From contig CAYZJA010000001.1 in assembly GCA_964479005.1 (NCBI GenBank), positions 192,001 to 256,000 on the forward strand: DNA of 64,000 nucleotides, given 5' to 3'. The position numbers were made by a program, and so were the translations under genes. Below the pieces are notes generated by a model. That model made no database searches. It was not told the origin of the DNA and saw only the letters and a list, made by a program, of their open reading frames with translations. The number at the start of each line of letters is the position of its first letter. Positions within the stretch are counted from its first letter, which is position 1. Below, piece by piece: positions 2,889-54,474 of the stretch. This stretch comes from an uncultured Candidatus Saccharibacteria bacterium (lineage in GTDB: Bacteria > Patescibacteriota > Minisyncoccia > UBA6257).

Positions 2889-3506
2889 ATGTTGGATGAT
2901 AAATGTAAAAAATGTAGGGCAGTTGGGGAGAAACTGTTTTTAAAAGGAGAAAGATGCTTTACTCCCAAATGCGCCTTAATAAGAAGGGGATTTAGGGTTT
3001 TAGGAAAAAGGAGAAGAAGAAAAACGTTAACTTCTTATGGCAAACAGTTATTAGAAAAACAAAAGGTAAAGTTAGCTTATGGAATGAGGGAAAAACAATT
3101 TAGAAGATATTTTAAAATGGCGTTAAAAAAGAAAATTTCTACTCCAGAAGCTTTTGCTCAATTAATAGAAAATCGTTTTGATAATACAGTGTTTCGTTTA
3201 GGATTTACTATTTCCAGAACGATGGCTAGACATTTAGTAAGCCATGGCCATTTTTTCTTAAACGGACGAAAACACAATATTTCTTCTACAATTGTGAAAA
3301 AAGACGATGTTATTTCTATCAGGCCACAGAGTAGCAGCAAAGCGCCTTTTAAAGATATTAAAGAAAGATTAAAAAAATATAGTCCTCCAAAGCATCTTAA
3401 ATTAGATATGAATAAAATGGAAGGAAAAGTTATGGCAGATCCAGATTTAGAAGAATTACAATTGCCTTTTGATTTCACTTCAATTGTAGAATTTTATAGC
3501 AGATAG
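2889..3506 (+). CDS. rpsD: 30S ribosomal protein S4 (zinc-ribbon type)
   Basis: N-terminal CKKC...CFTPKC zinc ribbon; S4 domain NGRKHNISSTIVKKDDVISI. Confidence 0.9.
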   Translation: MLDDKCKKCRAVGEKLFLKGERCFTPKCALIRRGFRVLGKRRRRKTLTSYGKQLLEKQKVKLAYGMREKQFRRYFKMALKKKISTPEAFAQLIENRFDNTVFRLGFTISRTMARHLVSHGHFFLNGRKHNISSTIVKKDDVISIRPQSSSKAPFKDIKERLKKYSPPKHLKLDMNKMEGKVMADPDLEELQLPFDFTSIVEFYSR

Positions 3507-3559: not shown

Positions 3560-4486
3560 ATGTTTCATTTACCTTCTTCAATAAAAATCATTGAGCAAGA
3601 AAAAAACTATGGAAAATTTGAAATCGAAGGACTATATCCTGGTTACGGAGTAACTATTGGTAATGCATTAAGGCGAGTTCTCCTTTCTTCCATAGAAGGC
3701 GCGGCAGTAACATCCTTTAAAATTAAAGGGGTTCATCATGAATTTTCTACTATTAATTATATTTCTGATACAGTTTTGGACATAATGCTTAATTTAAAAC
3801 AATTAAGAGTAAAACTGCACAGTAACGAGCCTCAGGTTTTAAAATTAAAGGTTGAAGGCGAAAAAAAGGTATATGCCAAGGACTTTGAATCTAATTCCAT
3901 GGTGGATGTAATGAACCCTGATTTATATATTACAGCCATTACAGATAAAAAAGGCAAAATAGAAATGGAGGTAGTGGTAGAAAAAGGATTAGGTTATTCA
4001 CAGGTAGAAGAACGCAAGGAAGATAAGATACCAATAGGTACTATTGCTGTTGATTCTATTTTTAGTCCGGTTCGAAGGGTTAATTTTCAAGTAGAAAATA
4101 TGAGAGTTAGGGAAAAAACCGATTACAATCGTTTAATTATTTCAATTGAAACAGATGGCTCTGTTTCTCCAAAAGAAGCGCTAAATAAAGCATCTGCGAT
4201 TTTAAAAGATCATTTTATTAATATTGAAGAAAAATTTGTTCCAGAACTTAAAGAAGAAAAAAAGGTTACTTCAAAAAAAGCAGGTAAGGAACCAAAAGAT
4301 ATCCTCATAAAAGATTTAGATTTGGGCTCTCGAACAAAAAAAGCCTTAATAAATAATGGAGTCAAGACTTTAGCTGGCTTATTGAGATATAACGAAGAAA
4401 ATTTATCAACCATGGATGGTTTAGGTAAGAAATCATTGGAAGAAATAAAAGCAATTCTTAAAAATTTAAAGTATACATTAAAGTAA
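3560..4486 (+). CDS. rpoA: DNA-directed RNA polymerase subunit alpha
   Basis: 308 aa; NTD YGKFEIEGLYPGYGVTIGNALRRVLLSSIEGAAV; CTD with LGSRTKKALINNGVKTLAGLL. Confidence 0.9.
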   Translation: MFHLPSSIKIIEQEKNYGKFEIEGLYPGYGVTIGNALRRVLLSSIEGAAVTSFKIKGVHHEFSTINYISDTVLDIMLNLKQLRVKLHSNEPQVLKLKVEGEKKVYAKDFESNSMVDVMNPDLYITAITDKKGKIEMEVVVEKGLGYSQVEERKEDKIPIGTIAVDSIFSPVRRVNFQVENMRVREKTDYNRLIISIETDGSVSPKEALNKASAILKDHFINIEEKFVPELKEEKKVTSKKAGKEPKDILIKDLDLGSRTKKALINNGVKTLAGLLRYNEENLSTMDGLGKKSLEEIKAILKNLKYTLK

Positions 4487-4524
4487 GAACCTGCTCGCTC
4501 TGCTCGCAGAACCTTGTTTCTCAC
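4487..4524 (+). promoter_or_regulatory. conserved intercistronic motif GAACCTGC-N-CAGAACCTTGTTTyTCA immediately after the rpoA stop (second copy after priA at 32711-32740)
   Basis: Near-identical 30-38 nt motifs, TAAGAACCTGC...CAGAACCTTGTTTCTCA versus TAAGAACCTGCTTTACAGAACCTTGTTTTTCA, both fused to a TAA stop and followed by the next cistron (rplQ, def). Confidence 0.4.
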
Positions 4525-4544
4525 TTTGTTCGAAATAAAAATAG

Positions 4545-6088: not shown

Positions 6089-6316
6089 ATGAATAACAAA
6101 CCCATCATAACTAAGGAGAAAGCACAAAAACTTTCTAAGCTTTTCGATAATCCTACTAATTTTAAACAGGCTTGTATTAAGGTTTTATTAGAAGTACCTG
6201 ATGAAAAACTGGATTTTTACAAAGGGAACTTGACTTTTTCAAAAAATGGTGGTACAATTTTGACGAAAATAGAACAATTTTGCGAACAGAAACAATTTAA
6301 GAGTTTTAAGAATTAA
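6089..6316 (+). CDS. small hypothetical protein, paralogue 1 (75 aa)
   Basis: MNNKPIITKEKAQKLSKLFDNPTNFKQACIKVLLEVPDEKLDFYKGNLTFSKNGG...; about 70% identical to the next ORF; no SD; ATG abuts a TATAAT box. Confidence 0.5.
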   Translation: MNNKPIITKEKAQKLSKLFDNPTNFKQACIKVLLEVPDEKLDFYKGNLTFSKNGGTILTKIEQFCEQKQFKSFKN

Positions 6317-6317
6317 A

Positions 6318-6428
6318 CAATTGAATCATACAATTTAATTAGTTTGCCGAGAAGGTGACGCTAACCGAAGAGGGGCGTCTAGACTATCTCTAAGTTTATT
6401 AGGGGTCGTCTGGACACCCCTTTTTTCA
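6318..6428 (+). repeat. about 110-nt GC-rich structured 3' element, copy 1 of 2 (nested hairpins GGGGCGTC...GACACCCC plus T-run)
   Basis: Near-identical copy at 6662-6772; ends in CCCCTTTTTT (terminator-like). Confidence 0.6.
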
Positions 6429-6653
6429 ATGAATAACAAATTTATTATAAACAAAAGAAAATATCAGGAACTTTCTAAACTCTTTGATAATCCTACTAAT
6501 TTTAAGGAAGCTTGTATAAAACTTCTGTTAGAAATACCAGATAAAAAATTAGATTTTTACAAAGGGAACTTGACTTTTTCAAAAAACGGTGGCATGATTC
6601 TAATGAAAATAGAAGAATTATGTGGGTCAAAACACTTTAATTTTAAAGATTGA
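6429..6653 (+). CDS. small hypothetical protein, paralogue 2 (74 aa)
   Basis: MNNKFIINKRKYQELSKLFDNPTNFKEACIKLLLEIPDKKLDFYKGNLTFSKNGG...; ATG lies 2 nt after the T-run of the preceding hairpin. Confidence 0.5.
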   Translation: MNNKFIINKRKYQELSKLFDNPTNFKEACIKLLLEIPDKKLDFYKGNLTFSKNGGMILMKIEELCGSKHFNFKD

Positions 6654-6661
6654 ACCTACAT

Positions 6662-6772
6662 AGATTAAATCATACAATTTAATTAGTTTGCCGAGAAGGT
6701 GACGCTAACCGAAGAGGGGCGTCTGAACTATCTCTAAGTTTATTAGGGGTCGTCTGGACGCCCCTTTTTTTA
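6662..6772 (+). repeat. about 110-nt structured 3' element, copy 2 (stem GGGGCGTC/GACGCCCC plus T7)
   Basis: Direct repeat of 6318-6428 with a perfect outer stem in this copy. Confidence 0.6.
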
Positions 6773-6938
6773 TTGGAAATTATTGGGAAAAAATATCAAC
6801 TGGATATTGAGAAAAAAATAGTACTTTATAGCACCTTGAAAAATAGCACCTTGAAATAAAAATTTAGTGAAATGAGAGATAAGAAAAAGATAAAAGTATA
6901 AGAAAGAAATGTATTAGAAAGAAAGGAGGTGAAACAAA

Positions 6939-28686: not shown

Positions 28687-30073
28687 AACTTTTCAATAAA
28701 TTAATAAATTTAGGGGGCATATTCGCTATTTTCCCTGGACCAGCAAAAAGGAAAACATCACCATCTTTTTGAAATTTGAAAAGATTTTTCAAAAAAGATG
28801 ATTCATTTTTTACAAGATGTAATTTATTTTTACTTAGGGTTTTTGTTTTTAATATCTCTTTATATATTTTTTCGCTGTTAATCCTTTTAATAGGTTTTTC
28901 ATTAGATGAATCTAGTGGTAAAAGAAATAAAATGTCACAATTCTTTATTGCTCGAGCAAAGTCTTTATACAGAAGAAAAATCCGAGAATAACGATGAGGC
29001 TCTAAAATGAATATAATTCTTCTTTTTGGAAAAACAATTCTTGCCATTCTTAAAGTACCTTTTATTTCAGTAGGATGATGCGCATAATCATCAACTATTG
29101 CAATTTCTTTATTATATAGGATGGAAAATCTTCTTTTTATACCAGTAAAGGTTTTTAAATATTGCAAGGCATCTTTTAAAGGAACATTGAGAATTTGTGA
29201 AGCAGAAATAGCGCCTAAAGCATTATAGATATTTTCTTTTCCAGGCAAAGAGAGTTCTAATCTTCCTTGAAATTTATTATTTATGAATAAATCCGAAAAA
29301 GTTTTTATTCCTTTATAATCAATATTTTTGACAAAAAGATCGGCTTTATTGTCTATCCCAAAAGTTAAAGATTTTCTTTTCTTTTGTTTTGCTATTTTTC
29401 TTAAAAAAGAATCATCATTATTTAAAACAATAAATCCAGACTGATTATTTTGAGAAAAATCTTCAAAAGCTTTTTTCAATAAAGAAAATTGTCCTTTGTA
29501 AGGACCATTAATATCTAAATGATCCTTATCAACATTAGTAATTACACAAAGAAAAAACGGAGTTTTTAAAAACGATTTATCGTGCTCATCTGTTTCCAAA
29601 ACAGAATATTCTCCTATCCCCCATTTACTTCCCAATGGATATGTTTTATTTTTAGCCCCTAAATAAACCGTTGGTTTTAATTTTGCTTTTTCTAAAATAT
29701 GGGCAATCATTGCTACAGTAGTACTTTTTCCATGAGTTCCTGCAATGCTAATAATCTTTTTTTCAGTCAGAATATCCATCAGAAAATCAAAACGATTCGA
29801 TAAAGGAACATTCATCTTTTGGGCTGTTTTAAGCTCAATGTTATTGACAGGAATTGCAGAAGAATAAATTACAATTTCTGCTTTTTTTATATTATCAGCC
29901 TTATGACCAATATATATCTTTGCTCCTTTTTTTTCTAAAATTCTTCTTGCTGCAAAATCATTTTTATCAGAGCCTGATAATGAATATCCTTTTTCTAATA
30001 AGAGATTGGCTAAAGCGGTCATTCCTACTCCTCCAATGCCGATTAAATGAATTTGCTTTTTCTTTATAGCCAT
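28673..30073 (-). CDS. murC: UDP-N-acetylmuramate--L-alanine ligase
   Basis: IHLIGIGGVGMTALANLL, GTHGKSTT (Mur ligase P-loop). Confidence 0.85.
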   Translation of the reverse strand: MAIKKKQIHLIGIGGVGMTALANLLLEKGYSLSGSDKNDFAARRILEKKGAKIYIGHKADNIKKAEIVIYSSAIPVNNIELKTAQKMNVPLSNRFDFLMDILTEKKIISIAGTHGKSTTVAMIAHILEKAKLKPTVYLGAKNKTYPLGSKWGIGEYSVLETDEHDKSFLKTPFFLCVITNVDKDHLDINGPYKGQFSLLKKAFEDFSQNNQSGFIVLNNDDSFLRKIAKQKKRKSLTFGIDNKADLFVKNIDYKGIKTFSDLFINNKFQGRLELSLPGKENIYNALGAISASQILNVPLKDALQYLKTFTGIKRRFSILYNKEIAIVDDYAHHPTEIKGTLRMARIVFPKRRIIFILEPHRYSRIFLLYKDFARAIKNCDILFLLPLDSSNEKPIKRINSEKIYKEILKTKTLSKNKLHLVKNESSFLKNLFKFQKDGDVFLFAGPGKIANMPPKFINLLKSYEKE

Positions 30074-31626: not shown

Positions 31627-32710
31627 AATTATTGATCTAAAAAAGGTTAGAAAAGAGAAAAAACTATTTCAGGCTATTTCTCCTGATGCTTTTATTGAAA
31701 TTCAAAAAGCCCTAAAAAAAAGAAAAAGGATTATTATTTTTATTAACAGAAGGGGGTTAGCAACAAGCATTATATGCCAGGAATGTGGTTTTGTATTTAA
31801 ATGCCCAAATTGTGATATCCCCTTGGGGTTTCATAATAAATCTAAGCTTATTTGTCATCATTGTAATTATAATGTTTCTATACCACCAGTTTGTCCTTCT
31901 TGCAGGGGCTATAAGCTTAAAGCTTTGGGAATTGGTATTGAGAGAATTGCTGAAGAAATTAAAAAATTTATTATTCCAACGCCTATTTTTATGTTAATCG
32001 AAGGGGAAACTTCTGATGAACAAAAATCAGATATTTTCGATAAATTTAATCGAGGAGATATTAAAATATTAATAGGGACTGAAGCTCTTTTAAACCCTCA
32101 ATTAAAAGCTGCCCATTTAGTAATAGTGGCTTCTGTTGATCCTGCGCTTTTCTTACCAGATTATTATAGCGAGGAAAGAGTGTTTTTAAACCTTTTAAAA
32201 CTAAAAGCTTTGTCTAAAGAAAGATTAATAATACAGACATTAATTCCTGAGAATAAATTATTCCAATATCTTATAAAAAACGAAGGAAAAAAATTTCTAC
32301 AAGAAGAAAAAAGATGGCGAAAAGATTATCTTTGGCCTCCCTATGTTCAATTAATAAAATTGACACTTTCTGACAAAGATCAAAAAAAGGGGGTGAAAGA
32401 AGCTGAAGAAACAAAAAGAAATTTAGAGCAAGCCATAAATAAGTTAATTCCAGAAAACCATCAAAAAGATTTTATTATTTTAGGACCTGCGCAAGCCTTT
32501 GTTTTTAAAGAAAAAAGCTTTTATAAATGGAATATTTTGGTAAAATATAAGTACTTTGAAAGTAAAATTAAAGAAGAGATTAACTCTTTGTTAGGACTCA
32601 ATTTACTTTCACCTGTTTTAACTAAAAAAGAATTAATGCTCAGAAATAAAATTTTAAAATACGTTCCTTTAAACTGGAAAATTGATGTTGATCCAATAAA
32701 TATATTGTAA
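31613..32710 (+). CDS. priA: PriA C-terminal part: Cys-rich zinc-binding region, helicase lobe 2 and CTD; separate frame with a 14-nt overlap
   Basis: IIIFINRRGLAT, CQECGFVFKCPNCD...CHHCNY...CPSC (CRR zinc fingers), ILIGTEALL; motif VI is degenerate (KLKALSKERL). Confidence 0.65.
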   Translation: MPVIKIIDLKKVRKEKKLFQAISPDAFIEIQKALKKRKRIIIFINRRGLATSIICQECGFVFKCPNCDIPLGFHNKSKLICHHCNYNVSIPPVCPSCRGYKLKALGIGIERIAEEIKKFIIPTPIFMLIEGETSDEQKSDIFDKFNRGDIKILIGTEALLNPQLKAAHLVIVASVDPALFLPDYYSEERVFLNLLKLKALSKERLIIQTLIPENKLFQYLIKNEGKKFLQEEKRWRKDYLWPPYVQLIKLTLSDKDQKKGVKEAEETKRNLEQAINKLIPENHQKDFIILGPAQAFVFKEKSFYKWNILVKYKYFESKIKEEINSLLGLNLLSPVLTKKELMLRNKILKYVPLNWKIDVDPINIL

Positions 32711-32753
32711 GAACCTGCTTTACAGAACCTTGTTTTTCATTTCATTCAAAATA

Positions 32754-38692: not shown

Positions 38693-39235
38693 TTATATCA
38701 TAGAAAATTCACACCCGCAGTATCTTTGACGATAAAGGTGATATTTTTTGGAAAGTTTTAAGCCAAGCCCGTATGCTTTATTAAAATCTATATCAAACCT
38801 TTTATATTTAATTTTATATTTATTTGCTAAAGATTTGCCATATTTATTAATAAATTCTGTATTTTTAAAGCGATTTACGTTTAAAGTAGTAGTAAATTCA
38901 TCAAAATTATTTTTTTTGGCAAATTTAACGGTTTCTTCCAAACGAAAACGAAAACAACTTAGACACCTTTCGCTGTTTTCTGAATAAAATTCAGGCAATT
39001 GAGGCAATGATTTTTTAACATAATCTAACCACTTACTGTGTTCATATCCTCCTATAATCAATTTTAACCTATAAATTTCAGATATTTTTTCCACATCTTT
39101 TAATCTTTTTTCATATTCTCCTTGAGGATAAATATTAGGATTATAAAAATACAAAGTAATATCTTTTACTTTTTCTCTTAATAAATATTCAATTATTGGC
39201 AATGCGCACACAGCGCAACAAGTATGAAGAAGCAT
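38693..39235 (-). CDS. queH: epoxyqueuosine reductase QueH (DUF208)
   Basis: MLLHTCCAVCA N-terminal motif and C-terminal CGCEFS; adjacent to tgt/queA. Confidence 0.7.
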   Translation of the reverse strand: MLLHTCCAVCALPIIEYLLREKVKDITLYFYNPNIYPQGEYEKRLKDVEKISEIYRLKLIIGGYEHSKWLDYVKKSLPQLPEFYSENSERCLSCFRFRLEETVKFAKKNNFDEFTTTLNVNRFKNTEFINKYGKSLANKYKIKYKRFDIDFNKAYGLGLKLSKKYHLYRQRYCGCEFSMI

Positions 39236-39359
39236 AAAATCAAATTAACAATTAACACAGAACAATTAATAATTAATTAAGCAATAATAAGGCGAGAAGA
39301 TGTTGTTGAAAAAACGATAACGATTAGCGTGTTTTTGAGATAATATCTTCTCGCCTTTA

Positions 39360-40481
39360 CTATCTATTTGCCATCCGTAATGTTTCTATTAGTCTCATCA
39401 TAAATCTTAAATTATGAATACTTGCTAAACGCAAATAAAGAGACTCTTTAACTGAATATAAGTGATGAAGGTAGGCTCTGGAAAAATTTTGACAAGTATA
39501 ACAATCACAGTTTTTATCAATAGGATTGTTATCATTCTCAAAGCGGTTGTTAGATATTCTTAAACATCCTTTTTCAAATTCTGACTCAAAACTATAGAGA
39601 GAACCATGCCGAGCTGTTCTTGTTGGTGCAACACAATCAAACATATCAACTCCCCTTTTTACAACTTCGATTATATCATAAGGTGAAGCGCCTAATCCCA
39701 TAGTATAGCGAGGTTTATTTTCTGGTAAAAAATCCTGCAAATAATCTAAAATCTCTAATGTTTTTGGCATATTATAACCAATTGTTTCTCCACCTAATGC
39801 GATTCCATCAAAAGGAAGACTGGTAATAAACTTGGTTGATTCTTTTCTTAAATCTTCAAAAATTCCTCCTTGAATAATTCCGAAAATCAAAGGCGGTTTT
39901 TGTCCTAAGCTTATACATTTTTTACTAAGTTCTTGATGTTTTTTTAATGACCTTTCTGCCCAGCGATGAGTTCTTTCCATTGATTTTTTCGCGTATTCTT
40001 TGTTATCAGAATCAGGACTGCATTCATCAAAAGCCATAATAATATCACAACCTAATTTATGTTGAATTTCTATTGATTTTTCAGGTGTAATTAGATGTTT
40101 TGACCCGTCAATTGGGGATGAAAATTCTACACCATTTTCACTGATTTTAGCTAACTTCTGCCCTTCTTTTGCTCTATTTTTAGCAAAGCTCCATACTTGA
40201 AACCCTCCAGAATCGCTCAGAATAGGCCCAGACCAGCCCATAAATCGATGAATGCCTCCTTGAGCATTAATTAGATCTTCCCCTGGCTGTAAGTGTAAAT
40301 GAAGCGTATTAACCAAGAGTATCTCTATACCAATTTTACTTAAATCATCAGGCCCAACTGCTTTAACAGTTGCTTGAGTTCCAGGCGGCATAAAAATTGG
40401 TGTTTTTACAATATCATGATTTGTTGATATTTCGCCCAAACGAGCTCTATCAACCTTAGATTTTTTAATAATTTTAAACAT
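39360..40481 (-). CDS. tgt: queuine tRNA-ribosyltransferase
   Basis: FMPPGTQATVK, DSGGFQV, zinc site CDCYTCQ...H. Confidence 0.85.
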   Translation of the reverse strand: MFKIIKKSKVDRARLGEISTNHDIVKTPIFMPPGTQATVKAVGPDDLSKIGIEILLVNTLHLHLQPGEDLINAQGGIHRFMGWSGPILSDSGGFQVWSFAKNRAKEGQKLAKISENGVEFSSPIDGSKHLITPEKSIEIQHKLGCDIIMAFDECSPDSDNKEYAKKSMERTHRWAERSLKKHQELSKKCISLGQKPPLIFGIIQGGIFEDLRKESTKFITSLPFDGIALGGETIGYNMPKTLEILDYLQDFLPENKPRYTMGLGASPYDIIEVVKRGVDMFDCVAPTRTARHGSLYSFESEFEKGCLRISNNRFENDNNPIDKNCDCYTCQNFSRAYLHHLYSVKESLYLRLASIHNLRFMMRLIETLRMANR

Positions 40482-40483
40482 AA

Positions 40484-41569
40484 TTATACGATAAACATTG
40501 CGTCTCCAAACGAGAAGAATCTATATTTTTTTACAATAGCTTCTTGATAAACTTTTAAAATTAAATCTCTATCAGCAACCACGTTAAACGTGGTATCAGT
40601 CGCGTTAAACGCGACAAAAGCGGAAACCAACATTAATAAAGTGGACTTAGGAAGGTGAAAATTCGTAATCAAAGAGTCAACAAACTTAAATTTATATCCA
40701 GGATAAATAAATAAATTTGTTTGATCTCGTTTCGGTTTTAATTCTAAGCTTTCATCTACACAACTTTCTAAAACACGAGCTGCAGTAGTTCCAACAGCAA
40801 TAATCCTCTTGCCCTCTGATTTTGACTTATTAAGTATTTTAGCAGTATCTTTAGAAAGTTCAAAAAATTCAGAATGCATTTGATGTTTTGTAATGTCTTG
40901 CGATTTTACTGATAAAAAAGTTCCCAATCCTATATGTAAAGTAATAAATTGCATATCAATCCCCTTTTCTTCAATTTTTTTTAAAAGGTTTTTTGTAAAA
41001 TGAAACCCTGCAGTAGGAGCGGCAATTGAGCCTTCTTTTTCTGCATAAATTGTTTGATACTCTAAAAATGATCTTTCAGTAGGCTCGGTAATATAAGGCG
41101 GTAAGGGAAATTGCCCTAAAGATAAAGCCTCCTGTTTTAAATCCTCACCTTCCATATTAAAACATATGATTCTTTCATAATTTAAAACCTCTTTTATCTC
41201 CCCCTTTAATAATTTACTAAATTCAATAATTTGCCCTTGTTTTAATTGAGGTTTCCCAATAATTACCCATCGTTTAGGCCATGAGATAAAATCAAAAATT
41301 TCTTTATTCTCAGGCCGAATAAGAAGAATTTCCGCTTTTCCATGGCTTGGAATTTTCTTTCCATATAAACGTGCTGGTACTACTTTACTATTATTAAATA
41401 CTAAAACATCATTATCAGACAAATAATCTAATATCTCATAGAATTTTCTATGTTCTATTTTTTTACTTTTTCTATCTAATATTAAAAGACGCGAGTGATC
41501 TCGCGGCTCTATTGGTTCCTGAGCAATAAGCTCTTTTGGTAAATGATAATCAAAAAGCGAAATATCCAT
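40484..41569 (-). CDS. queA: S-adenosylmethionine:tRNA ribosyltransferase-isomerase
   Basis: MDISLFDYHLPKELIAQEPIEPRDHSRLLIL. Confidence 0.85.
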   Translation of the reverse strand: MDISLFDYHLPKELIAQEPIEPRDHSRLLILDRKSKKIEHRKFYEILDYLSDNDVLVFNNSKVVPARLYGKKIPSHGKAEILLIRPENKEIFDFISWPKRWVIIGKPQLKQGQIIEFSKLLKGEIKEVLNYERIICFNMEGEDLKQEALSLGQFPLPPYITEPTERSFLEYQTIYAEKEGSIAAPTAGFHFTKNLLKKIEEKGIDMQFITLHIGLGTFLSVKSQDITKHQMHSEFFELSKDTAKILNKSKSEGKRIIAVGTTAARVLESCVDESLELKPKRDQTNLFIYPGYKFKFVDSLITNFHLPKSTLLMLVSAFVAFNATDTTFNVVADRDLILKVYQEAIVKKYRFFSFGDAMFIV

Positions 41570-41575
41570 AAAAAA

Positions 41576-42118
41576 TCACTCTTTACAACAATCCATTATA
41601 CTTTTAATAATACCGCCTAATTTGTCAAAAACATTAAATTTTTTCCCTTTTGCTATTTCAATATTATTAGTTTCTTCCTCATTTCGTTGTCTAATATCCT
41701 TTACATCTATCAAATTTAAATTTAATCCCCAAAATATATCCCAAAGCGCATAAGCCTTATCAAATAAATCTCTTGCCTCTTTTTCTTCTTTGTTTCCCAG
41801 TTTTTTAGTTCCTACTTCCATTAGCCGCATACTTGCAGATAATAGATGCTTTGAAATACACCAAATTTCTCCATCAGGATTTTTAACAATCTTTGCTAAT
41901 AGCTCTTTTCGAGAATCCCTTGTTTTATTAAGCAAGTCTAAATACTTTTTGTCTTTGGTTTTTTCATAAGTAAAAAAGAAATGTTCTTCCATGGAAATTA
42001 AATTCATAACAGCAATACCTAAATCTTCCTTAGATGATAAATCCAAAGCATTCCCTTCTTCTTTTAATTTCTTTATTTTATTAAATAAGTCTGCGACTTT
42101 TTGTTCTTCAATATTCAT
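41576..42118 (-). CDS. hypothetical protein (180 aa)
   Basis: ORF only. Confidence 0.3.
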   Translation of the reverse strand: MNIEEQKVADLFNKIKKLKEEGNALDLSSKEDLGIAVMNLISMEEHFFFTYEKTKDKKYLDLLNKTRDSRKELLAKIVKNPDGEIWCISKHLLSASMRLMEVGTKKLGNKEEKEARDLFDKAYALWDIFWGLNLNLIDVKDIRQRNEEETNNIEIAKGKKFNVFDKLGGIIKSIMDCCKE

Positions 42119-42143
42119 AATTTTTAATAATTAAATGCTTTAA

Positions 42144-42578
42144 TCAACACATTGCTTCTATAATCATACTCACAATAATTAAACCAATAATCGGGATGAT
42201 GACCTTTTGATAATAAAAATAAACCTTTTTATTGTGTTTATCGATTACAAAAAGATTTGCTTTATCTACGAGAAAAAGAGTTAATGCTCCCAAAACTGAA
42301 CCACAAATTATACGAGGAAGTCCACAAATATTACAAACAGGATCTTGGGTTAAAGTTTTTAAAATTGGCAAAAATGACAAAAGATATGTTGCTATAAAAA
42401 TAACCCAAAAACTATATGGAAAACTTTTACCTTTTTTGCTTAAAAATATATTAAATTGGATTGAAAAAGATAAAATAAGCGCTCCAATCCATAATCCTAA
42501 AGTTATATCATCTATACCAAGCCAGCGAGAAATTCCTAATCCACTAGCGATACCTATGGCACATATTGGTCCACACAT
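42144..42578 (-). CDS. Cys-rich integral membrane protein (possible thiol-disulfide oxidoreductase, DsbB/VKOR-like?)
   Basis: 4 TM; cysteine pairs MCGPIC and CNICGLPRIICG; adjacent to trxB. Confidence 0.3.
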   Translation of the reverse strand: MCGPICAIGIASGLGISRWLGIDDITLGLWIGALILSFSIQFNIFLSKKGKSFPYSFWVIFIATYLLSFLPILKTLTQDPVCNICGLPRIICGSVLGALTLFLVDKANLFVIDKHNKKVYFYYQKVIIPIIGLIIVSMIIEAMC

Positions 42579-42636
42579 ACTACTATAATTTTTAATTTAC
42601 AATTTTTAATTTTAAAACCCTAAAGAGTATTTTATA

Positions 42637-43560
42637 TCATTTTTGCAGTTTTCTCAACCATTTATCAGCATCCAAAAGAGCCATTGCGCCCAAACCAGCA
42701 GCAGTAATTGCTTGTTTATACTTAGTATCGCAAACATCTCCTGCGGCAAATATCCCATCAACAGAAGTTTTTGTATTCTCCTTTACTTTGATATAACTAT
42801 TATTATCTAAATCAAGCTGATTTTGGAAAATATCAGTTGATGGTTTATAACCAATTGATACAAATAATCCATCTAATTCTAAAAATCTTTTTTCTTTTGT
42901 ATTTACATCCTTTATATAAACTCCTTCTAAAGAATCTTTTCCTTTAATTTCTGAAATAACAGTATTCCAAATAAATTCTATTTTTGGATTATTAAAAACT
43001 TCCTCTTGCAATTTTTTAGACGCCCTTGATTCATTTCTACGATGAATAATAAAAAGTTTTTTTGCATATTTAGTTAAAACAATAGCATTTTCCATAGCGC
43101 TATCGCCTCCTCCTACAACACCTACGATTTTATCTTTAAAGAAAAAACCATCACATACAGCGCAAGCAGAAACACCATGGCTAATTAATTCTTGCTCATT
43201 TTTTAAACCAAGCCATTTAGTAGAAGCTCCAGTAGCTACAATTACAGCTTTTGCCAAATATTCTTCATTGTCTGTTTTTATAACAAAAGGCTTTTTTTGA
43301 AAATCTACAGAAACCACATTCTTTTCTATCATTTCTACACCAAATTTTTTAACTTGTTCAATTATTTTTTTAATAAGTTCTGGGCCTGTCATTTTTTCAG
43401 GAAAACCGGGAAAATCATCAATTTGTTCGCTAAGCATTAATTGCCCTCCCAAAGGTAAACCAGTGAATAATAATGTTTTGAGTTTTGCTCTGCCAGCGTA
43501 AATTCCTGCTGTTAAACCAGCTGGACCACTGCCAATAATGATAATATCTTTAATATCCAT
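42637..43560 (-). CDS. trxB: thioredoxin-disulfide reductase
   Basis: GSGPAGLTAGIYAGRA (FAD), CAVCDG redox centre, GGGDSA (NADPH). Confidence 0.85.
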   Translation of the reverse strand: MDIKDIIIIGSGPAGLTAGIYAGRAKLKTLLFTGLPLGGQLMLSEQIDDFPGFPEKMTGPELIKKIIEQVKKFGVEMIEKNVVSVDFQKKPFVIKTDNEEYLAKAVIVATGASTKWLGLKNEQELISHGVSACAVCDGFFFKDKIVGVVGGGDSAMENAIVLTKYAKKLFIIHRRNESRASKKLQEEVFNNPKIEFIWNTVISEIKGKDSLEGVYIKDVNTKEKRFLELDGLFVSIGYKPSTDIFQNQLDLDNNSYIKVKENTKTSVDGIFAAGDVCDTKYKQAITAAGLGAMALLDADKWLRKLQK

Positions 43561-43604
43561 AATTCTTTTATTTTAGCACTTTTAAGCTAAAAATAACAAC
43601 TTTT

Positions 43605-43633
43605 CGCTTCGCCACGTCAAACGTGGCTTCGCT
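43605..43633. repeat. palindromic 29-nt motif CGCTTCG-CCACGTCAAACGTGG-CTTCGCT (copy A)
   Basis: Perfect inverted repeat CCACGT-caa-ACGTGG flanked by direct GCTTCG; reverse-complement copy at 53478-53510. Confidence 0.6.
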
Positions 43634-43674
43634 CAAGAACGTTGTTTTCTCATTTTATTCGAAAATAAAAGAAA

Positions 43675-43702
43675 AACAGGTATCAAAGACACCTGTTTTT
43701 CT
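43675..43702. terminator. orphan intrinsic terminator hairpin between the divergent trxB and murD
   Basis: AACAGGT-atcaaagac-ACCTGTT plus TTTTT; neither flanking gene is transcribed toward it. Confidence 0.5.
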
Positions 43703-43741
43703 GGTGATCCCCTCCTGCAAGCAGGAAGGGAAGCCCCACCG

Positions 43742-43769
43742 TTGACGACCTTGCGATCGTCAGCATAAT
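43742..43769 (+). promoter_or_regulatory. candidate murD promoter TTGACG-16-CATAAT
   Basis: TTGACG 43742-47, CATAAT 43764-69. Confidence 0.45.
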
Positions 43770-43850
43770 TATAACAAATAAAAAAGCAAAAATCAACCCC
43801 AGCATGAAAATTGGCAATAGAAATTTTTGAATGTTAAAATAACTATTATG

Positions 43851-45284
43851 CAAGAAATCAATAAATTTATTAAAGACAAAAAAGTACTAGTAGTAGGATT
43901 AGGAATATTGGGCGGAGGCGTATCTACTTGCTTATGGCTTTTAAAACACAAGGCTAAACTTACTATTACGGATTTAAAACAGAAAAAGGATTTAGAAAAG
44001 TCGCTGAAAAGATTAAAGAGATATTCTGCTAAAATAAAATTAGTACTAGGCAAACATAATAAAAATGATTTTAGTGACAATGATATTATGGTTATAAACC
44101 AAAGCGTGCCAATAAGAAATAATCCGTATCTTAAAATTGCTAATCGAGCAAATAAATTAATAGAAAATGAAATGAGTTTATTCTTTAAATTTAATAAGAA
44201 TCCAGTTGTAGCAATAACTGGCAGTTGGGGAAAAACCACAACGACTAATTGGGTAGGTCATCTTTTGCGCGGAAAATATAATGATGTTGTTGCTGGTGGA
44301 AATACGCCAGATAATCCAGTTCTTTCATTCTTAGATAAATTAAAAGCCGATAACCCAATAGTTTTAGAACTGCCCAGTTATTCATTAGAATTAGTAAAAC
44401 TAAAATACAAAGCGCCCAAAATAGCCATCATCACTAATTTATATAGAGATCATTTAGATCGCCATGGTACTATAAAAAATTATGCCAAGGCAAAATCTCG
44501 TATTTTTCAAAATCAAAAAGATACTGATTATTTAATTCTAAGTTATAACAACAAATGGACTAAATTCTTTCTTTCTTTAAAGCCGCAAAGCCAAGTCTAT
44601 TTTATTTCGCATAATCCCCTGCCTAAAAGTAAGAATGGAATTTTTTACAAAAAAGATAAAATTTATTATCAGAAATATCAAAAGAAAAGATTAATATTCA
44701 ACGCAAGTAAATTTGCAAAGTATTGGGGAGAACATAATGTAGACAATTTAATGACTGCTATATTAGCTTCTAAGTTATTCGGTTTAACTTTTGCTCAAAT
44801 TAAAAAACAAATTGTCTCATTACCTGAAATCAAATTTCGCCAAGAAATAATTTTTCAAAACAAAAAACTGCTTGTTATTAATGATAGTAGCGCTACATCG
44901 CCAGACGCTACTATTGCCGCTCTAAAAAGATTTAAGCAACGTAAAAATAGCAATTTTGTTCTAATCACCGGAGGAACAGATAAAGATTTAGAATATAATG
45001 AATTAGCTAAAGAGATAAAAAGGACTATGCTTCCTAAAAATTTAGTTATTCTTAATGGTTCGGCAAGTAAAAAATTAGTAAAAGCATTAAATAAAATAAA
45101 ATACTCTAATCAATACTTCGTTTTTGAATCTTTAAAAGAGTGTTTTTATTATAGTCTCTATCAGAGAAAACAAAAGAAAAGAAACATCATTCTCTTTTCT
45201 CCTGCCGCAGCAAGTTTTGAAAAGTTTAAAAACGAATTTGACCGTGCTGAACAATTTAACAAATTAATCAAAAGATTAAAATAA
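43851..45284 (+). CDS. murD: UDP-N-acetylmuramoylalanine--D-glutamate ligase
   Basis: VVGLGILGGGVS (Rossmann), GSWGKTTTT (P-loop); the start may be ATG 43827 or 43851. Confidence 0.8.
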   Translation, partial: QEINKFIKDKKVLVVGLGILGGGVSTCLWLLKHKAKLTITDLKQKKDLEKSLKRLKRYSAKIKLVLGKHNKNDFSDNDIMVINQSVPIRNNPYLKIANRANKLIENEMSLFFKFNKNPVVAITGSWGKTTTTNWVGHLLRGKYNDVVAGGNTPDNPVLSFLDKLKADNPIVLELPSYSLELVKLKYKAPKIAIITNLYRDHLDRHGTIKNYAKAKSRIFQNQKDTDYLILSYNNKWTKFFLSLKPQSQVYFISHNPLPKSKNGIFYKKDKIYYQKYQKKRLIFNASKFAKYWGEHNVDNLMTAILASKLFGLTFAQIKKQIVSLPEIKFRQEIIFQNKKLLVINDSSATSPDATIAALKRFKQRKNSNFVLITGGTDKDLEYNELAKEIKRTMLPKNLVILNGSASKKLVKALNKIKYSNQYFVFESLKECFYYSLYQRKQKKRNIILFSPAAASFEKFKNEFDRAEQFNKLIKRLK

Positions 45285-48350: not shown

Positions 48351-48435
48351 ATTCTAATTCTACCCCTTTAACAGGCTCAGGGCAAACAAAAAATCGCCTC
48401 TTTCACCATTTTAAAAGTATTCCAATAAATTTAAA

Positions 48436-49128: not shown

Positions 49129-49340
49129 ATTTTTTTATTTTATATTATTAAACTATTTACTATATAACTAACTACTAATAATTTATAATAATCAGTTATA
49201 TAGTAAATAGTAAAAATATTGTTTTTCAAAGAACTAAAAATATCCTATTACAGGATATCATAAGTATAACATATTTTATATTGTTAGTCAATATATAATT
49301 TAGCTGGGGCTATGGAACGATGTTGGAACTTATTTCATAG
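49129..49340 (-). promoter_or_regulatory. R1 promoter-leader module: GTTCCA direct repeats, TTGACT-17-TATACT, operator palindrome ATATCCTATTACAGGATAT, perfect 18-bp inverted repeat in the leader
   Basis: About 80% identical to R2 (50262-50460); -35 at 49286-91, -10 at 49263-68, palindrome 49240-58, stem arms 49152-69 and 49194-211. Confidence 0.6.
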
Positions 49341-49345
49341 AAAAA

Positions 49346-49702
49346 TCACAATTTTAATTCTGAAATTATTGTTCTTCCAGATTCTTCTTTCTTTTTAAAA
49401 ATTAAGAATTTGGGACTAATCTTCAAATTTGGATCATTTGATGTCTCGGGTTTTAAAAACTCTGCTATTCCCTGAATTTGGAGTGTACCTTCTCTTGTTT
49501 GATCATCTATGACTAAAGAAACTGTTTGATTATTTAACAGATTTTTAAACTTTAATGAATCAGGGTTAGTTGAAATATATATATTAAAATCATCATCAAC
49601 TATATAATTAACTGTTGCTGCCCAGGGTCTATCTTCATAAGAAGTAGCCAACACACAATGCTTATGTTCTTTTAACCATTTTTTAATAAGTTCCTTTTCC
49701 AT
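49346..49702 (-). CDS. pyridoxamine 5'-phosphate oxidase-like FMN-binding split-barrel protein
   Basis: KWLKEHKHCVLATSYEDRPWAATVNY typical of the PNPOx-like / general stress protein 26 family. Confidence 0.6.
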   Translation of the reverse strand: MEKELIKKWLKEHKHCVLATSYEDRPWAATVNYIVDDDFNIYISTNPDSLKFKNLLNNQTVSLVIDDQTREGTLQIQGIAEFLKPETSNDPNLKISPKFLIFKKKEESGRTIISELKL

Positions 49703-49790
49703 TGTTCATATTTTACCAAAAAATCGCCTCTTTGACTATTTTAATTTAGCTACCCCTATGAAACGATATTGGAACCCATTTCATTAAATA

Positions 49791-49830
49791 AAATGGAGGC
49801 TGAAGAAATCTTATTTCTTTGCCTCCATTT
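49791..49830 (-). terminator. intrinsic terminator AAATGGAGGC...GCCTCCATTT
   Basis: 10-bp stem; on the minus strand followed by TTTATTTAAT. Confidence 0.55.
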
Positions 49831-49837
49831 AAAAAAA

Positions 49838-50242
49838 TTATTCCTCTATTACTTTTTTTATCATTTGTGCTTCAATCTCATTAGCTATAGCCGATACTAT
49901 AAGTGCAAACGTGAGCATTCCGTTTGCAATAGTACCAGTAACATCATGAAAGAACAAATAATTTCCCATGGCCACCCAGAAAAGAGCTACTGTAAACATT
50001 TCTTTGATAAAAATACCCCTCCTTATTCCACCCTTTGTGATGCTCCCGTAGATAATCCGAAGCATTGTTTTACTTGGGTTTCCCTTATGAGTAGGTACTT
50101 CTAGAGCTAAAAATATAGCTACTGCAGGACAAAAGAGAATTCCTGGATTGCGTGTTGCCCAAATCAACAATATCAGAAATGAAACTATTGAAAGCACAAC
50201 TCCTATTGCGTGAAGTACAGATATATATACTGGTCTATTCAT
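49838..50242 (-). CDS. hypothetical membrane protein (about 134 aa, 4 TM)
   Basis: The ATG (M4 of the ORF-track protein) sits 8 nt after SD AGGAGG; preceded by the R2 module. Confidence 0.4.
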   Translation of the reverse strand: MNRPVYISVLHAIGVVLSIVSFLILLIWATRNPGILFCPAVAIFLALEVPTHKGNPSKTMLRIIYGSITKGGIRRGIFIKEMFTVALFWVAMGNYLFFHDVTGTIANGMLTFALIVSAIANEIEAQMIKKVIEE

Positions 50243-50261
50243 TTTTTCCACCTCCTTTCAA

Positions 50262-50460
50262 ATTTTAATTAATATTAAACTACCTGTTATATAACTGACC
50301 ACTAATAATGTAATGACCAGTTATATAACAAGTAGTAAGTATATTGTTTTTCAAACAACTAAAAATATCCTATTACAGGATATTATAAATATAACATATT
50401 CTATGTTAGGAGTCAATACATAGCTGGTCCTATGGAACGATGTTGGAACCTATTTGGCTC
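50262..50460 (-). promoter_or_regulatory. R2 promoter-leader module (paralogue of R1): GTTCCA repeats, TTGACT-17-TATATT, the same operator palindrome, 18-bp stem with compensatory changes
   Basis: -35 at 50411-16, -10 at 50388-93, palindrome 50365-83, stem arms 50280-97 and 50318-35. Confidence 0.6.
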
Positions 50461-52729: not shown

Positions 52730-52821
<92 letters not shown>

Positions 52822-53395: not shown

Positions 53396-53592
53396 AGAAG
53401 CAAGTATTTGCTCCTGAACGACATTAGTGGAAGCAGAGATACAAACAAATGAAACGAATGATAGGGAAAGCCGAAACTGGAGCGGAGCCACGTTTGACGT
53501 GGCGGAGCGGAATTTCGGAAGGCTTCCAGAGCGAGTGAATATTGTTTGTCTCTGCTGGAATGCAGGAGAGAAGGGGGAAATACTTGCTTCTA
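53396..53592. ncRNA. candidate roughly 197-nt rod-like structured RNA (6S-like architecture), strand undetermined
   Basis: Perfect 13-bp closing helix GAAGCAAGTATTT/AAATACTTGCTTC (53397-409 and 53578-590); further long-range pairs CTCCTG/CAGGAG and GCAGAGATACAAACAAAT/ATATTGTTTGTCTCTGC; apical hairpin carries the CCACGTTTGACGTGG motif; unusually GC-rich; 323-nt intergenic. Confidence 0.45.
53478..53510. repeat. palindromic motif copy B (reverse complement CCGCTCCG-CCACGTCAAACGTGG-CTCCGCTCC)
   Basis: Same core and flank pattern as 43605-43633, inverted orientation, at the apex of the rod-like structure. Confidence 0.6.
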
Positions 53593-54474
53593 CACATCCA
53601 TTTGTCTCAAAGCCTTTACCCTTTCTTCTATAAGAGGATGAGTCATCCAAAGCTTGCTTACTGCTTTTTTTCTAAAAGGATTAGAAATAAAAAGATGGCT
53701 TGTCGCATTTGAAGCAACTCGTAAAGGATTTGGATCCTGAGAAATTTTCTCTAATGCACGTGCTAATCCTTCTGGATAGCGAGTTAAAAGCGCTCCTGAA
53801 GCATCAGCTAAGAACTCCCTTTTTCTTGATATGGCTAGTTTGAGTAAAGTAGCTGCTAAAGGCGCTATAATAGCGGCTACGATGCCAATTACCAGCATAA
53901 TAAGACCTAAATTACCTTTACTATCTCTATTTCTTCTTCCCCAAAACAAAGACCTGAAAAGCCAATCTGATAATAAAGCAATCATACCAACCAAAACCAC
54001 AACTACTGAGGATAAAAGAATATCACGATTGCCAATATGAGCTAATTCATGAGCAATAACTCCTTCTAATTCAGATTTTTCCAATTTATCTAATAATCCT
54101 TGCGTGACACAAACAACCCCGTGTTTAGCATCTCTCCCAGTGGCAAATGCATTAGGAGAAATATCATCAATAATATAAATCTTCGGCATTGGCAATCCAG
54201 CTGTAATAGAAAGATTTTCCACTATCCTGTATAATTCTGGATTATCCTCTTTTTTTATTGGTTTTGATTTAGTTAAAGCAAGAATAATTTTATCAGAATG
54301 CCAATAACTGGAAAAACTCCAAAATACACTAAAAATAACAGCAATATATAAAATCAACAACGATTCAAAAATATAACTAAAAACCCATCCTAAGGCAATA
54401 ATTAATATCAAAAAAACCGTGATTAAAAACCACGTTTTCCGAATATTAGAATCGACTTGTGTGTAAAGAGTCAC
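53590..54474 (-). CDS. htpX: zinc metalloprotease HtpX (M48)
   Basis: HELAHIGN (HExxH), 4 TM. Confidence 0.85.
   Translation of the reverse strand: MTLYTQVDSNIRKTWFLITVFLILIIALGWVFSYIFESLLILYIAVIFSVFWSFSSYWHSDKIILALTKSKPIKKEDNPELYRIVENLSITAGLPMPKIYIIDDISPNAFATGRDAKHGVVCVTQGLLDKLEKSELEGVIAHELAHIGNRDILLSSVVVVLVGMIALLSDWLFRSLFWGRRNRDSKGNLGLIMLVIGIVAAIIAPLAATLLKLAISRKREFLADASGALLTRYPEGLARALEKISQDPNPLRVASNATSHLFISNPFRKKAVSKLWMTHPLIEERVKALRQMDV

Follow-up and report, generated by a model that had tools for sequence, protein, structure and literature searches.

What does an intrinsic terminator do between two genes that are transcribed away from each other? The question is raised by a spacer in the 64,000-nucleotide (nt) stretch of DNA analysed here, hereafter the window, which comes from an uncultured Candidatus Saccharibacteria bacterium (contig CAYZJA010000001.1, positions 192,001 to 256,000). 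The spacer of 288 nt (43561-43847) separates trxB, which encodes a thioredoxin reductase on the minus strand (43560->42637; Pfam Pyr_redox_2, 5e-55), from a divergent gene for a MurD-like Mur ligase on the plus strand (murD; 43848-45284, ATG at 43848). A preliminary description, made from the sequence alone, had proposed an independent short transcript in this spacer, and all of the features that it listed are present when the sequence is read: AACAGGT/ACCTGTT followed by T5 (43675-43702), a GC-rich hairpin GGTGATCCCCTCCTGC-AAG-CAGGAAGGGAAGCCCCACC (43703-43740), a palindromic motif CGCTTCGCCACGTCAAACGTGGCTTCGCT (43605-43633) and an inverted repeat TTTTAGC-N8-GCTAAAA (43571-43592). The G+C content is approximately 30% across the window and reaches 62% in the hairpin region, and the spacer folds better than shuffled sequence on both strands (z = -6.0 for the plus strand and -6.6 for the minus strand, with none of 200 shuffles equalling it). 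Conservation, covariation, a promoter and a terminator uphold the idea of a short independent transcript, whereas its strand, boundaries and composition have to be redrawn: the predicted RNA gene is on the minus strand, running from about 43761 to 43662 in the same direction as trxB.

Structure, strand and conservation of the predicted spacer RNA

Read on the minus strand, the spacer holds a promoter, two hairpins termed P1 and P2 (the latter being the GC-rich hairpin) and a terminator, in that order. The promoter (43768-43796) combines a -35 box TTGATT (43796-43791), a 17-nt spacer and an extended -10 box TGtTATAAT (43776-43768), and a consensus scan matches it at 10 of 12 positions in addition to the TG extension. 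TTGAY and TATAAT are invariant in a four-way alignment of the window with three relatives (L001, L002 and L003), and TTGAY-17/18-TGnTATAAT is visible in every homologous locus of the metagenome scan described below. The unit is thus predicted to have a conserved upstream promoter of its own, as a stand-alone small RNA (sRNA) gene should. The predicted transcript (43662-43761, approximately 90-100 nt) comprises P1, a linker J1/2, P2 and the terminator hairpin; we infer that its 5′ end is the G located 7 nt past the -10 box and that its 3′ end lies within the U-run. A covariance model of the hairpins, R1, matches the window at a single place, 43700-43763 on the minus strand (76.5 bits, E = 1e-14), and the same three hairpins appear in the minimum-free-energy folds of seven lineages.

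P1 (43744-43761) is a 7-base-pair (bp) stem capped by a GNRA tetraloop, GACGAUC-GCAA-GGUCGUC. It lies outside the boundaries first proposed, where it had been taken for promoter DNA, and it belongs to the RNA. In the R1 alignment, 99.4% of the P1 cells pair, and the only changes are wobbles (A-U to G-U and U-A to U-G), as would be expected of an RNA and not of a DNA palindrome. The loop is GCAA, GUAA, GAAA or GCGA in 22 of 23 distinct sequences; departures are found in L094/L132, where it has 8 nt, and in L128, where it reads UUGC. In the L128 hairpin (2321-2342), the loop has UUGC on the RNA strand and GCAA on the other, as if the palindromic hairpin had been flipped. The linker J1/2 (43741-43743) is AAC, or AAAC in some lineages, and is invariant in two alignments. 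Part of it lies inside the pattern used for the metagenome search, and it is also conserved in loci found only by way of trxB (L001-L003, L128, L129 and L132).

P2 (43703-43740) consists of a basal helix GGUG(G)/(U)CACC, a bulge (G)GGCU of 4-5 nt, a distal stem of 9-13 bp and a variable loop, for which CUUG, GAAAC, UUU, UUCUA and GAACA are all observed. The bulge is invariant, while the sequence of the distal stem is variable: 9 of its 12 pairs are changed on both sides, and approximately 11 distinct stem variants all pair. RNAalifold independently predicts both P1 and P2, with the basal P2 helix gaining a G-U pair, so that the GGCU bulge has 4 nt. No reading frame is conserved between lineages, since the frame is shifted by a 1-nt indel in the linker and by differences in the length of P2, which argues that the RNA is not coding.

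The terminator (43660-43702) has a stem of 15 pairs with a 3-nt loop (43702-43670) and a U-rich tail (43669-43660) in which TTTATTTT follows TTTTTCT on the minus strand, as expected of an intrinsic terminator. Its stem sequence is fully replaced between lineages (CAGGUGUC... versus GGAUAGUUUAC...), with the hairpin and U-run retained; in the L094/L132 lineage the terminator is absent or weak. Since the terminator closes a unit with its own near-consensus promoter (43796-43768), a transcript no longer has to be argued from a terminator that lacks an upstream gene. The case shows that a seemingly orphan terminator between divergent genes can end a gene on the opposite strand.

Altogether, 39 loci representing at least five sub-lineages have the unit. 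A TrxB protein scan, taking one genome per species, returned three close relatives, L001, L002 and L003 (90%, 73% and 72% amino acid identity), and in all three the whole unit stands directly upstream of trxB and co-oriented with it. The promoter boxes are invariant among them, P1 is kept, P2 is altered yet paired, and the terminator stem is replaced. Further relatives fetched by TrxB identity also carry the unit (L128, 68%; L129, 70%; L132, 62%), whereas five others with 56-65% TrxB identity, in which trxB lies in tight operons, do not (L130, L131 and L133-L135). R1 finds no match at these five or at L004, all trxB relatives of 55-65% identity. It is also without a match upstream of 76 further trxB genes drawn from a wide range of phyla, several groups of the candidate phyla radiation (CPR) among them.

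Metagenome contigs were scanned separately with a DNA pattern drawn from the conserved RNA stretch, TCGTCAA(N)CGGTGGGGCTYCC, without reference to trxB. The scan returned 44 loci, of which 33 are AT-rich and truly homologous and 11, in GC-rich coding DNA, are chance matches; viral contigs gave only three chance matches to a loose pattern, in GC-rich DNA. In all loci for which downstream sequence was available, a trxB start lies 116-188 nt downstream on the same strand, over a range of TrxB identity from 55 to 100%. The upstream neighbour is less constant. It is a divergent murD in most loci, rplJ-rplL and a small open reading frame (ORF) in L003, L113, L128 and L129, and a divergent glyA in L094/L132; these changing neighbours indicate that the unit travels with trxB and not with murD. 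The RNA is found here only in one Paceibacteria-like CPR clade, always adjoining trxB. We use this group name in view of disagreeing taxonomic labels: the closest genomes are labelled ‘Candidatus Saccharibacteria’, and near-identical TrxB proteins are named ‘Candidatus Paceibacterota/Pacebacteria’ at NCBI.

R1 aligned 35 instances, 23 of them distinct, in an alignment that is fitted to the model. Standard pairs form in 98.5% of its 477 cells, and 10 pairs (31 cells) are changed on both sides, nine of them in the distal stem of P2. On no one of five pairing measures is the alignment equalled by any of 500 column shuffles, and slid registers pair only 34-59% of cells. RNAalifold on the same rows and the minimum-free-energy folds of individual sequences agree with the model-fitted structure. 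As judged from these alignments, the compensatory changes go beyond what shared ancestry explains, and the unit is a structured non-coding RNA. The alignment also speaks to strand: P1 and P2 contain 34 G-U cells against 6 A-C cells, an imbalance that fixes the transcribed strand as the minus strand of the window.

Independent RNA gene or leader of trxB

There are several possible explanations for a structured, terminated RNA at this position. We favour, with moderate confidence, an independent and constitutively terminated structured sRNA gene on the minus strand. Transcription would start at about 43761 from the sigma-70 promoter TTGATT-17-TGtTATAAT, and the RNA would fold into P1 with its GNRA loop, P2 as a long helix with the invariant GGCU bulge, and a strong terminator hairpin ending at approximately 43662-43670. 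With no competing antiterminator fold, termination would be constitutive and would yield a stable, compact RNA of about 95 nt. The trxB gene would be transcribed separately from its own extended -10 promoter, giving an essentially leaderless mRNA.

Three observations support this reading: a separate trxB promoter, the lack of a Shine-Dalgarno sequence before trxB and the lack of an antiterminator. The predicted trxB promoter (43570-43599, minus strand) has an extended -10 box TGcTAAAAT (43578-43570) placed 9 nt before the ATG at 43560, with a weak -35 box TTGTTA. All lineages keep TGnTAAAAT before trxB, including those whose surrounding spacer is unrelated, and in most loci it stands 6-9 nt before the ATG, a spacing that is typical of leaderless mRNAs. 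Neither trxB nor murD is preceded by a Shine-Dalgarno sequence, whereas approximately 12 other genes of the window have strong GGAGG sites. As for an antiterminator, none was found in seven lineages: deprived of the 3′ arm of the terminator, the RNA keeps P1 and P2, and the 5′ arm stays unpaired or forms trivial local pairs. The sole candidate, a 4-bp pairing between CACC and GGUG, is not conserved.

The most likely action of such an RNA would be to bind a protein or a small ligand in its folded form, rather than to regulate by antisense base-pairing. Conserved helices, the bulge, the tetraloop and invariant C-G pairs, together with the lack of a long single-stranded seed, suggest this kind of partner, although naming the partner or a physiological role is speculative. 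The invariable adjacency to trxB suggests a functional link to thioredoxin reductase and the queuosine-salvage genes that follow it.

Several points weigh against an independent RNA. Its strict, co-oriented linkage to trxB is the classic signature of a cis-regulatory leader, and simple synteny in a narrow clade could likewise produce it. L094/L132 have no convincing terminator after P2, and the element there would be part of the trxB 5′ untranslated region (UTR). The putative trxB -10 box lies 24-36 nt before the ATG in some loci, and trxB is not leaderless everywhere. No target emerged when the complement of the conserved G-rich stretch was sought, as it is not enriched in the window (11 matches versus 13.6 expected). 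Lastly, TCGTCAA(N)CGGTGGGGCTYCC served as the search pattern, which accounts for part of its invariance in the metagenome loci; the six loci that were reached only through trxB have the identical stretch.

The strongest of the competing explanations, which we regard as possible but distinctly less probable than an independent RNA, is a cis-regulatory 5′ leader of trxB(-queA-tgt-queH). In such a leader, P1 and P2 would act as the sensor of a riboswitch or protein-dependent attenuator and the terminator as its expression platform, and transcription that passes the terminator would supplement or disturb the output of the proximal trxB promoter. The position is that of a riboswitch, directly upstream of trxB and co-oriented in at least three upstream contexts, and the standard riboswitch likewise has a structured domain with a terminator behind it. 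With its GNRA loop, invariant bulge and invariant C-G pairs, the fold is compact and resembles an aptamer; the L094/L132 arrangement points the same way, and the downstream cluster holds queA, tgt and queH in the window, L128 and L129. Set against this, no conserved antiterminator pairing of the kind expected of a riboswitch is present in the seven lineages, and P1 and P2 are very stable and remain intact without the terminator 3′ arm. A read-through RNA would also present the trxB AUG internally and without a Shine-Dalgarno sequence, so that it should be poorly translated, whereas trxB has a -10 box of its own. Nor does the RNA match any Rfam riboswitch class, preQ1-I, -II and -III included.

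A related and rather doubtful proposal is that P1-P2 is a sensor RNA of a new class (riboswitch or protein-responsive attenuator), acting through read-through or promoter occlusion on trxB-queA-tgt-queH in Paceibacteria-like CPR bacteria, or else an unrecognised housekeeping RNA of these reduced genomes. The housekeeping alternative is put forward because it is what the near-consensus promoter would suggest.

We consider it improbable that the spacer merely holds DNA-level operators, that is, palindromic transcription-factor sites serving the divergent murD and trxB promoters, with no RNA made. The DNA of P1 is a near-perfect palindrome (TTGACGATC-N4-GATCGTCAA) that overlaps the promoter +1, and the inverted loop of L128 is what would be expected if only the palindrome mattered. 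Yet the substitutions in the arms are asymmetric, keeping RNA wobbles (A-U to G-U) while breaking DNA symmetry. In P2, no operator would tolerate a stem whose sequence is free as long as it pairs, with nine pairs doubly changed, and the element persists where murD is absent.

The transcript as first described, a plus-strand sRNA of 100-150 nt that is made of the palindromic motif and ends at AACAGGT...ACCTGTT-T5, with the GC-rich hairpin downstream, is very improbable. A hairpin and T5 can be read on the plus strand, which, as noted, also folds better than shuffled sequence. What had been called a textbook terminator has a plus-strand stem of only 7 bp and a 9-nt loop, since inner pairs become A-C mismatches, and the terminator scan calls the minus strand only. 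The 34 G-U pairs of P1 and P2 would likewise turn into A-C mismatches. No promoter-like site is present on the plus strand at 43332-43742, the conserved promoter faces the opposite way, and the palindromic motif is missing in most relatives that keep the hairpins.

Least credible of all is a mobile or repetitive element, akin to miniature inverted-repeat transposable elements (MITEs) or repetitive extragenic palindromic (REP) sequences, or a decayed gene fragment without function of its own: a true interspersed repeat does lie in the same spacer (43590-43661), but the P1-P2 unit occurs once in the window and once in each locus, comes with a conserved promoter, and keeps a fixed position and orientation to trxB while TrxB identity ranges over 57-100%, a pattern not expected of a repeat.

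Relation to known RNAs

A search of the whole window against Rfam 15 at gathering thresholds returned only a tRNA-Ser (52735-52821). Permissive scans of 43450-43950 and 43655-43770 on both strands, covering the Rfam check that the preliminary description had suggested, assign the spacer to no family; they gave sub-threshold noise that falls mostly on the terminator hairpin, the best match scoring 20.8 bits against a cut-off of 50.

Particular known RNAs were considered and set aside. The RNA of the bacterial signal recognition particle (SRP, 4.5S) is marked by a GNRA-capped helix 8 with symmetric and asymmetric loops. Here, a 116-nt query has no match to the family RF00169 even at E <= 10, and the P2 distal stem is a perfect helix whose sequence is free and whose loop varies. 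6S RNA, whose long helix of some 180 nt opens into a central bubble, is supported neither by Rfam nor by anatomy, and the same holds for 5S rRNA, tRNA-like structures and small ribozymes. A mimic of the 16S rRNA 3′ end (the end of helix 44, helix 45 and the GGAUCACC tail) was suggested by GGAUCACC after P2 and GUCGUCAACGGU before it. The resemblance is neither significant nor conserved: in a local alignment to a 16S reference, the window shares only the 8-mer GGATCACC (p = 0.08-0.09 versus shuffles), L002 gives p = 0.6-0.7, and the Rfam scans of the spacer contain no small-subunit rRNA hit.

Among known kinds of RNA, stand-alone sRNA genes with sigma-70 promoters and Rho-independent terminators are alike in having a strong promoter of their own, a length of about 95 nt, a terminal hairpin with a U-run, a conserved structure and no coding potential. 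Structured protein-binding RNAs such as 6S and 4.5S are the closer comparison, and Hfq-dependent antisense sRNAs are more distant. The spacer RNA differs from known stand-alone sRNAs in having no Rfam family, none of the SRP or 6S marks and no obvious single-stranded seed. Terminating riboswitches share the order of domain and terminator and the co-oriented position upstream of one gene cluster. Thematically, preQ1-I, -II and -III are the nearest, as they control queuosine genes and the cluster downstream of the spacer RNA includes queA, tgt and queH in most lineages. The spacer RNA is unlike all three: it matches them in neither sequence nor structure, has no antiterminator, is separated from the gene by a promoter that follows the terminator, and is followed first by trxB rather than by a queuosine gene. 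It is best classed as a new family of a known kind, namely the small structured bacterial RNA genes that have a sigma-70 promoter and end in an intrinsic terminator.

A literature search on sRNAs of CPR and Saccharibacteria and on trxB RNA motifs gave no relevant title. To our knowledge, few regulatory or structural RNAs beyond the universal ones have been described in CPR (Patescibacteria), whose genomes are very small and whose members are nearly all uncultured. The near-consensus promoter, the covariation and the unbroken association with trxB offer a testable lead on redox or tRNA-modification regulation, and the covariance model is available for application to complete genomes and metatranscriptomes. 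The RNA would be of greater interest as a sensor serving the trxB-queuosine cluster or as a CPR housekeeping RNA.

Repeats, promoters and genes around the RNA

The palindromic motif, which had been counted as part of the transcript, sits past the terminator, inside a repeat insertion (43590-43661) that close relatives are without. The insertion has 72 nt, takes the motif (43605-43633) as its core, is flanked by the direct repeat TTATTTT, and occupies the interval between the terminator U-run and the trxB promoter. Its site is empty in L001, L083, L119 and most relatives, and a related copy lies at the same site in L090/L122. The motif recurs in the window at 53481-53509 with 2 mismatches, where 0 copies are expected by chance. 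Repeat copies lie at 4482-4533 and 32705-32750 of the window, with the core alone at 53481-53509, and at 4262-4310 of L001. L090 has three copies (883-934 and 2960-3060), with tandem in-frame copies inside an ORF, and L106 has a 51-nt in-frame insertion (1088-1138) spanning trxB codons 8-24. Viral contigs contain no copy of the palindromic core. On the evidence of dispersed copies and of presence or absence at the same site in relatives, the motif is part of an interspersed palindromic repeat.

Members of the repeat family are approximately 45-75 nt long, with the consensus ...GAGCAAAGCGAGAAACAAGGTTCTG..GAGCGAAG..CAGGTTCTTATTT. The variant in the window has an extra core CCACGTTTGACGTGG between mini-hairpins GCGAAGC (GCGNAGC), and this core, with GCGNAGC mini-hairpins, is found again at the apex of a roughly 200-nt hairpin (53397-53595). 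Rickettsia palindromic elements (RPEs) and REP- or MITE-like repeats are likewise 50-75 nt long, dispersed, and present or absent at given sites in relatives. The likeness in layout to RPEs extends to the short direct repeat that flanks the window copy and to the in-frame copies in L106 trxB and the L090 ORF.

The hairpin at 53397-53595 is imperfect and lies between a DUF4870 gene and a gene for an M48 peptidase. It is closed by a stem gaagcaagtatt/aatacttgcttc and folds with z = -4.1 and -4.9; it has no Rfam hit, and no promoter or terminator is called there. Either a composite repeat or an RNA not recognised so far could account for it.

An inverted repeat had also been pointed out at the trxB start (43571-43592). 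It is present, but one of its arms is the extended -10 box of trxB itself, paired with the end of the interspersed repeat and a U-run, and it is imperfect in most relatives (for example, GGC...GTT). On the other side of the spacer, the hairpins had been placed before the murD promoter. The best candidate for that promoter lies at 43811-43840 on the plus strand (TTGGCA-18-TGtTAAAAT), 7 nt before the ATG at 43848; it does not adjoin the hairpins and stands back to back with the sRNA promoter, an arrangement that can be read in L001 too.

From their predicted promoters and the lack of Shine-Dalgarno sequences, both trxB and murD look like genes with promoters of their own and leaderless mRNAs. 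Similar -10-like boxes stand 6-9 nt before ATGs without a Shine-Dalgarno sequence at the ORFs starting at 30073(-), 30233(+), 49702(-) and 51915(-). The box is TGnTAAAAT before trxB, murD and the 49702(-) ORF, and TATAAT or TAAAAT before the 30073(-), 30233(+) and 51915(-) ORFs. This pattern suggests that leaderless mRNAs coexist with GGAGG-led genes in the window.

Downstream, trxB heads a co-directional cluster on the minus strand, reaching from 43560 down to 38693, that contains trxB, two small ORFs without a Pfam match, queA, tgt and queH (Queuosine_synth, 2e-122; TGT, 1e-132; QueH, 6e-53). The same gene order recurs in L128 and L129. The cluster (38693-43560) is tight, and joins thioredoxin reductase with genes of queuosine salvage and insertion. 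Elsewhere in the window, long direct repeats occur at 6089-6775 and 49186-50455 (212 nt at 78% and 112 nt at 95% identity, about 340 nt apart, and 112 nt at 86%, 1125 nt apart), and the motif CAAAAAATCGCCTCTTT is repeated at 48387, 49717 and 51967.

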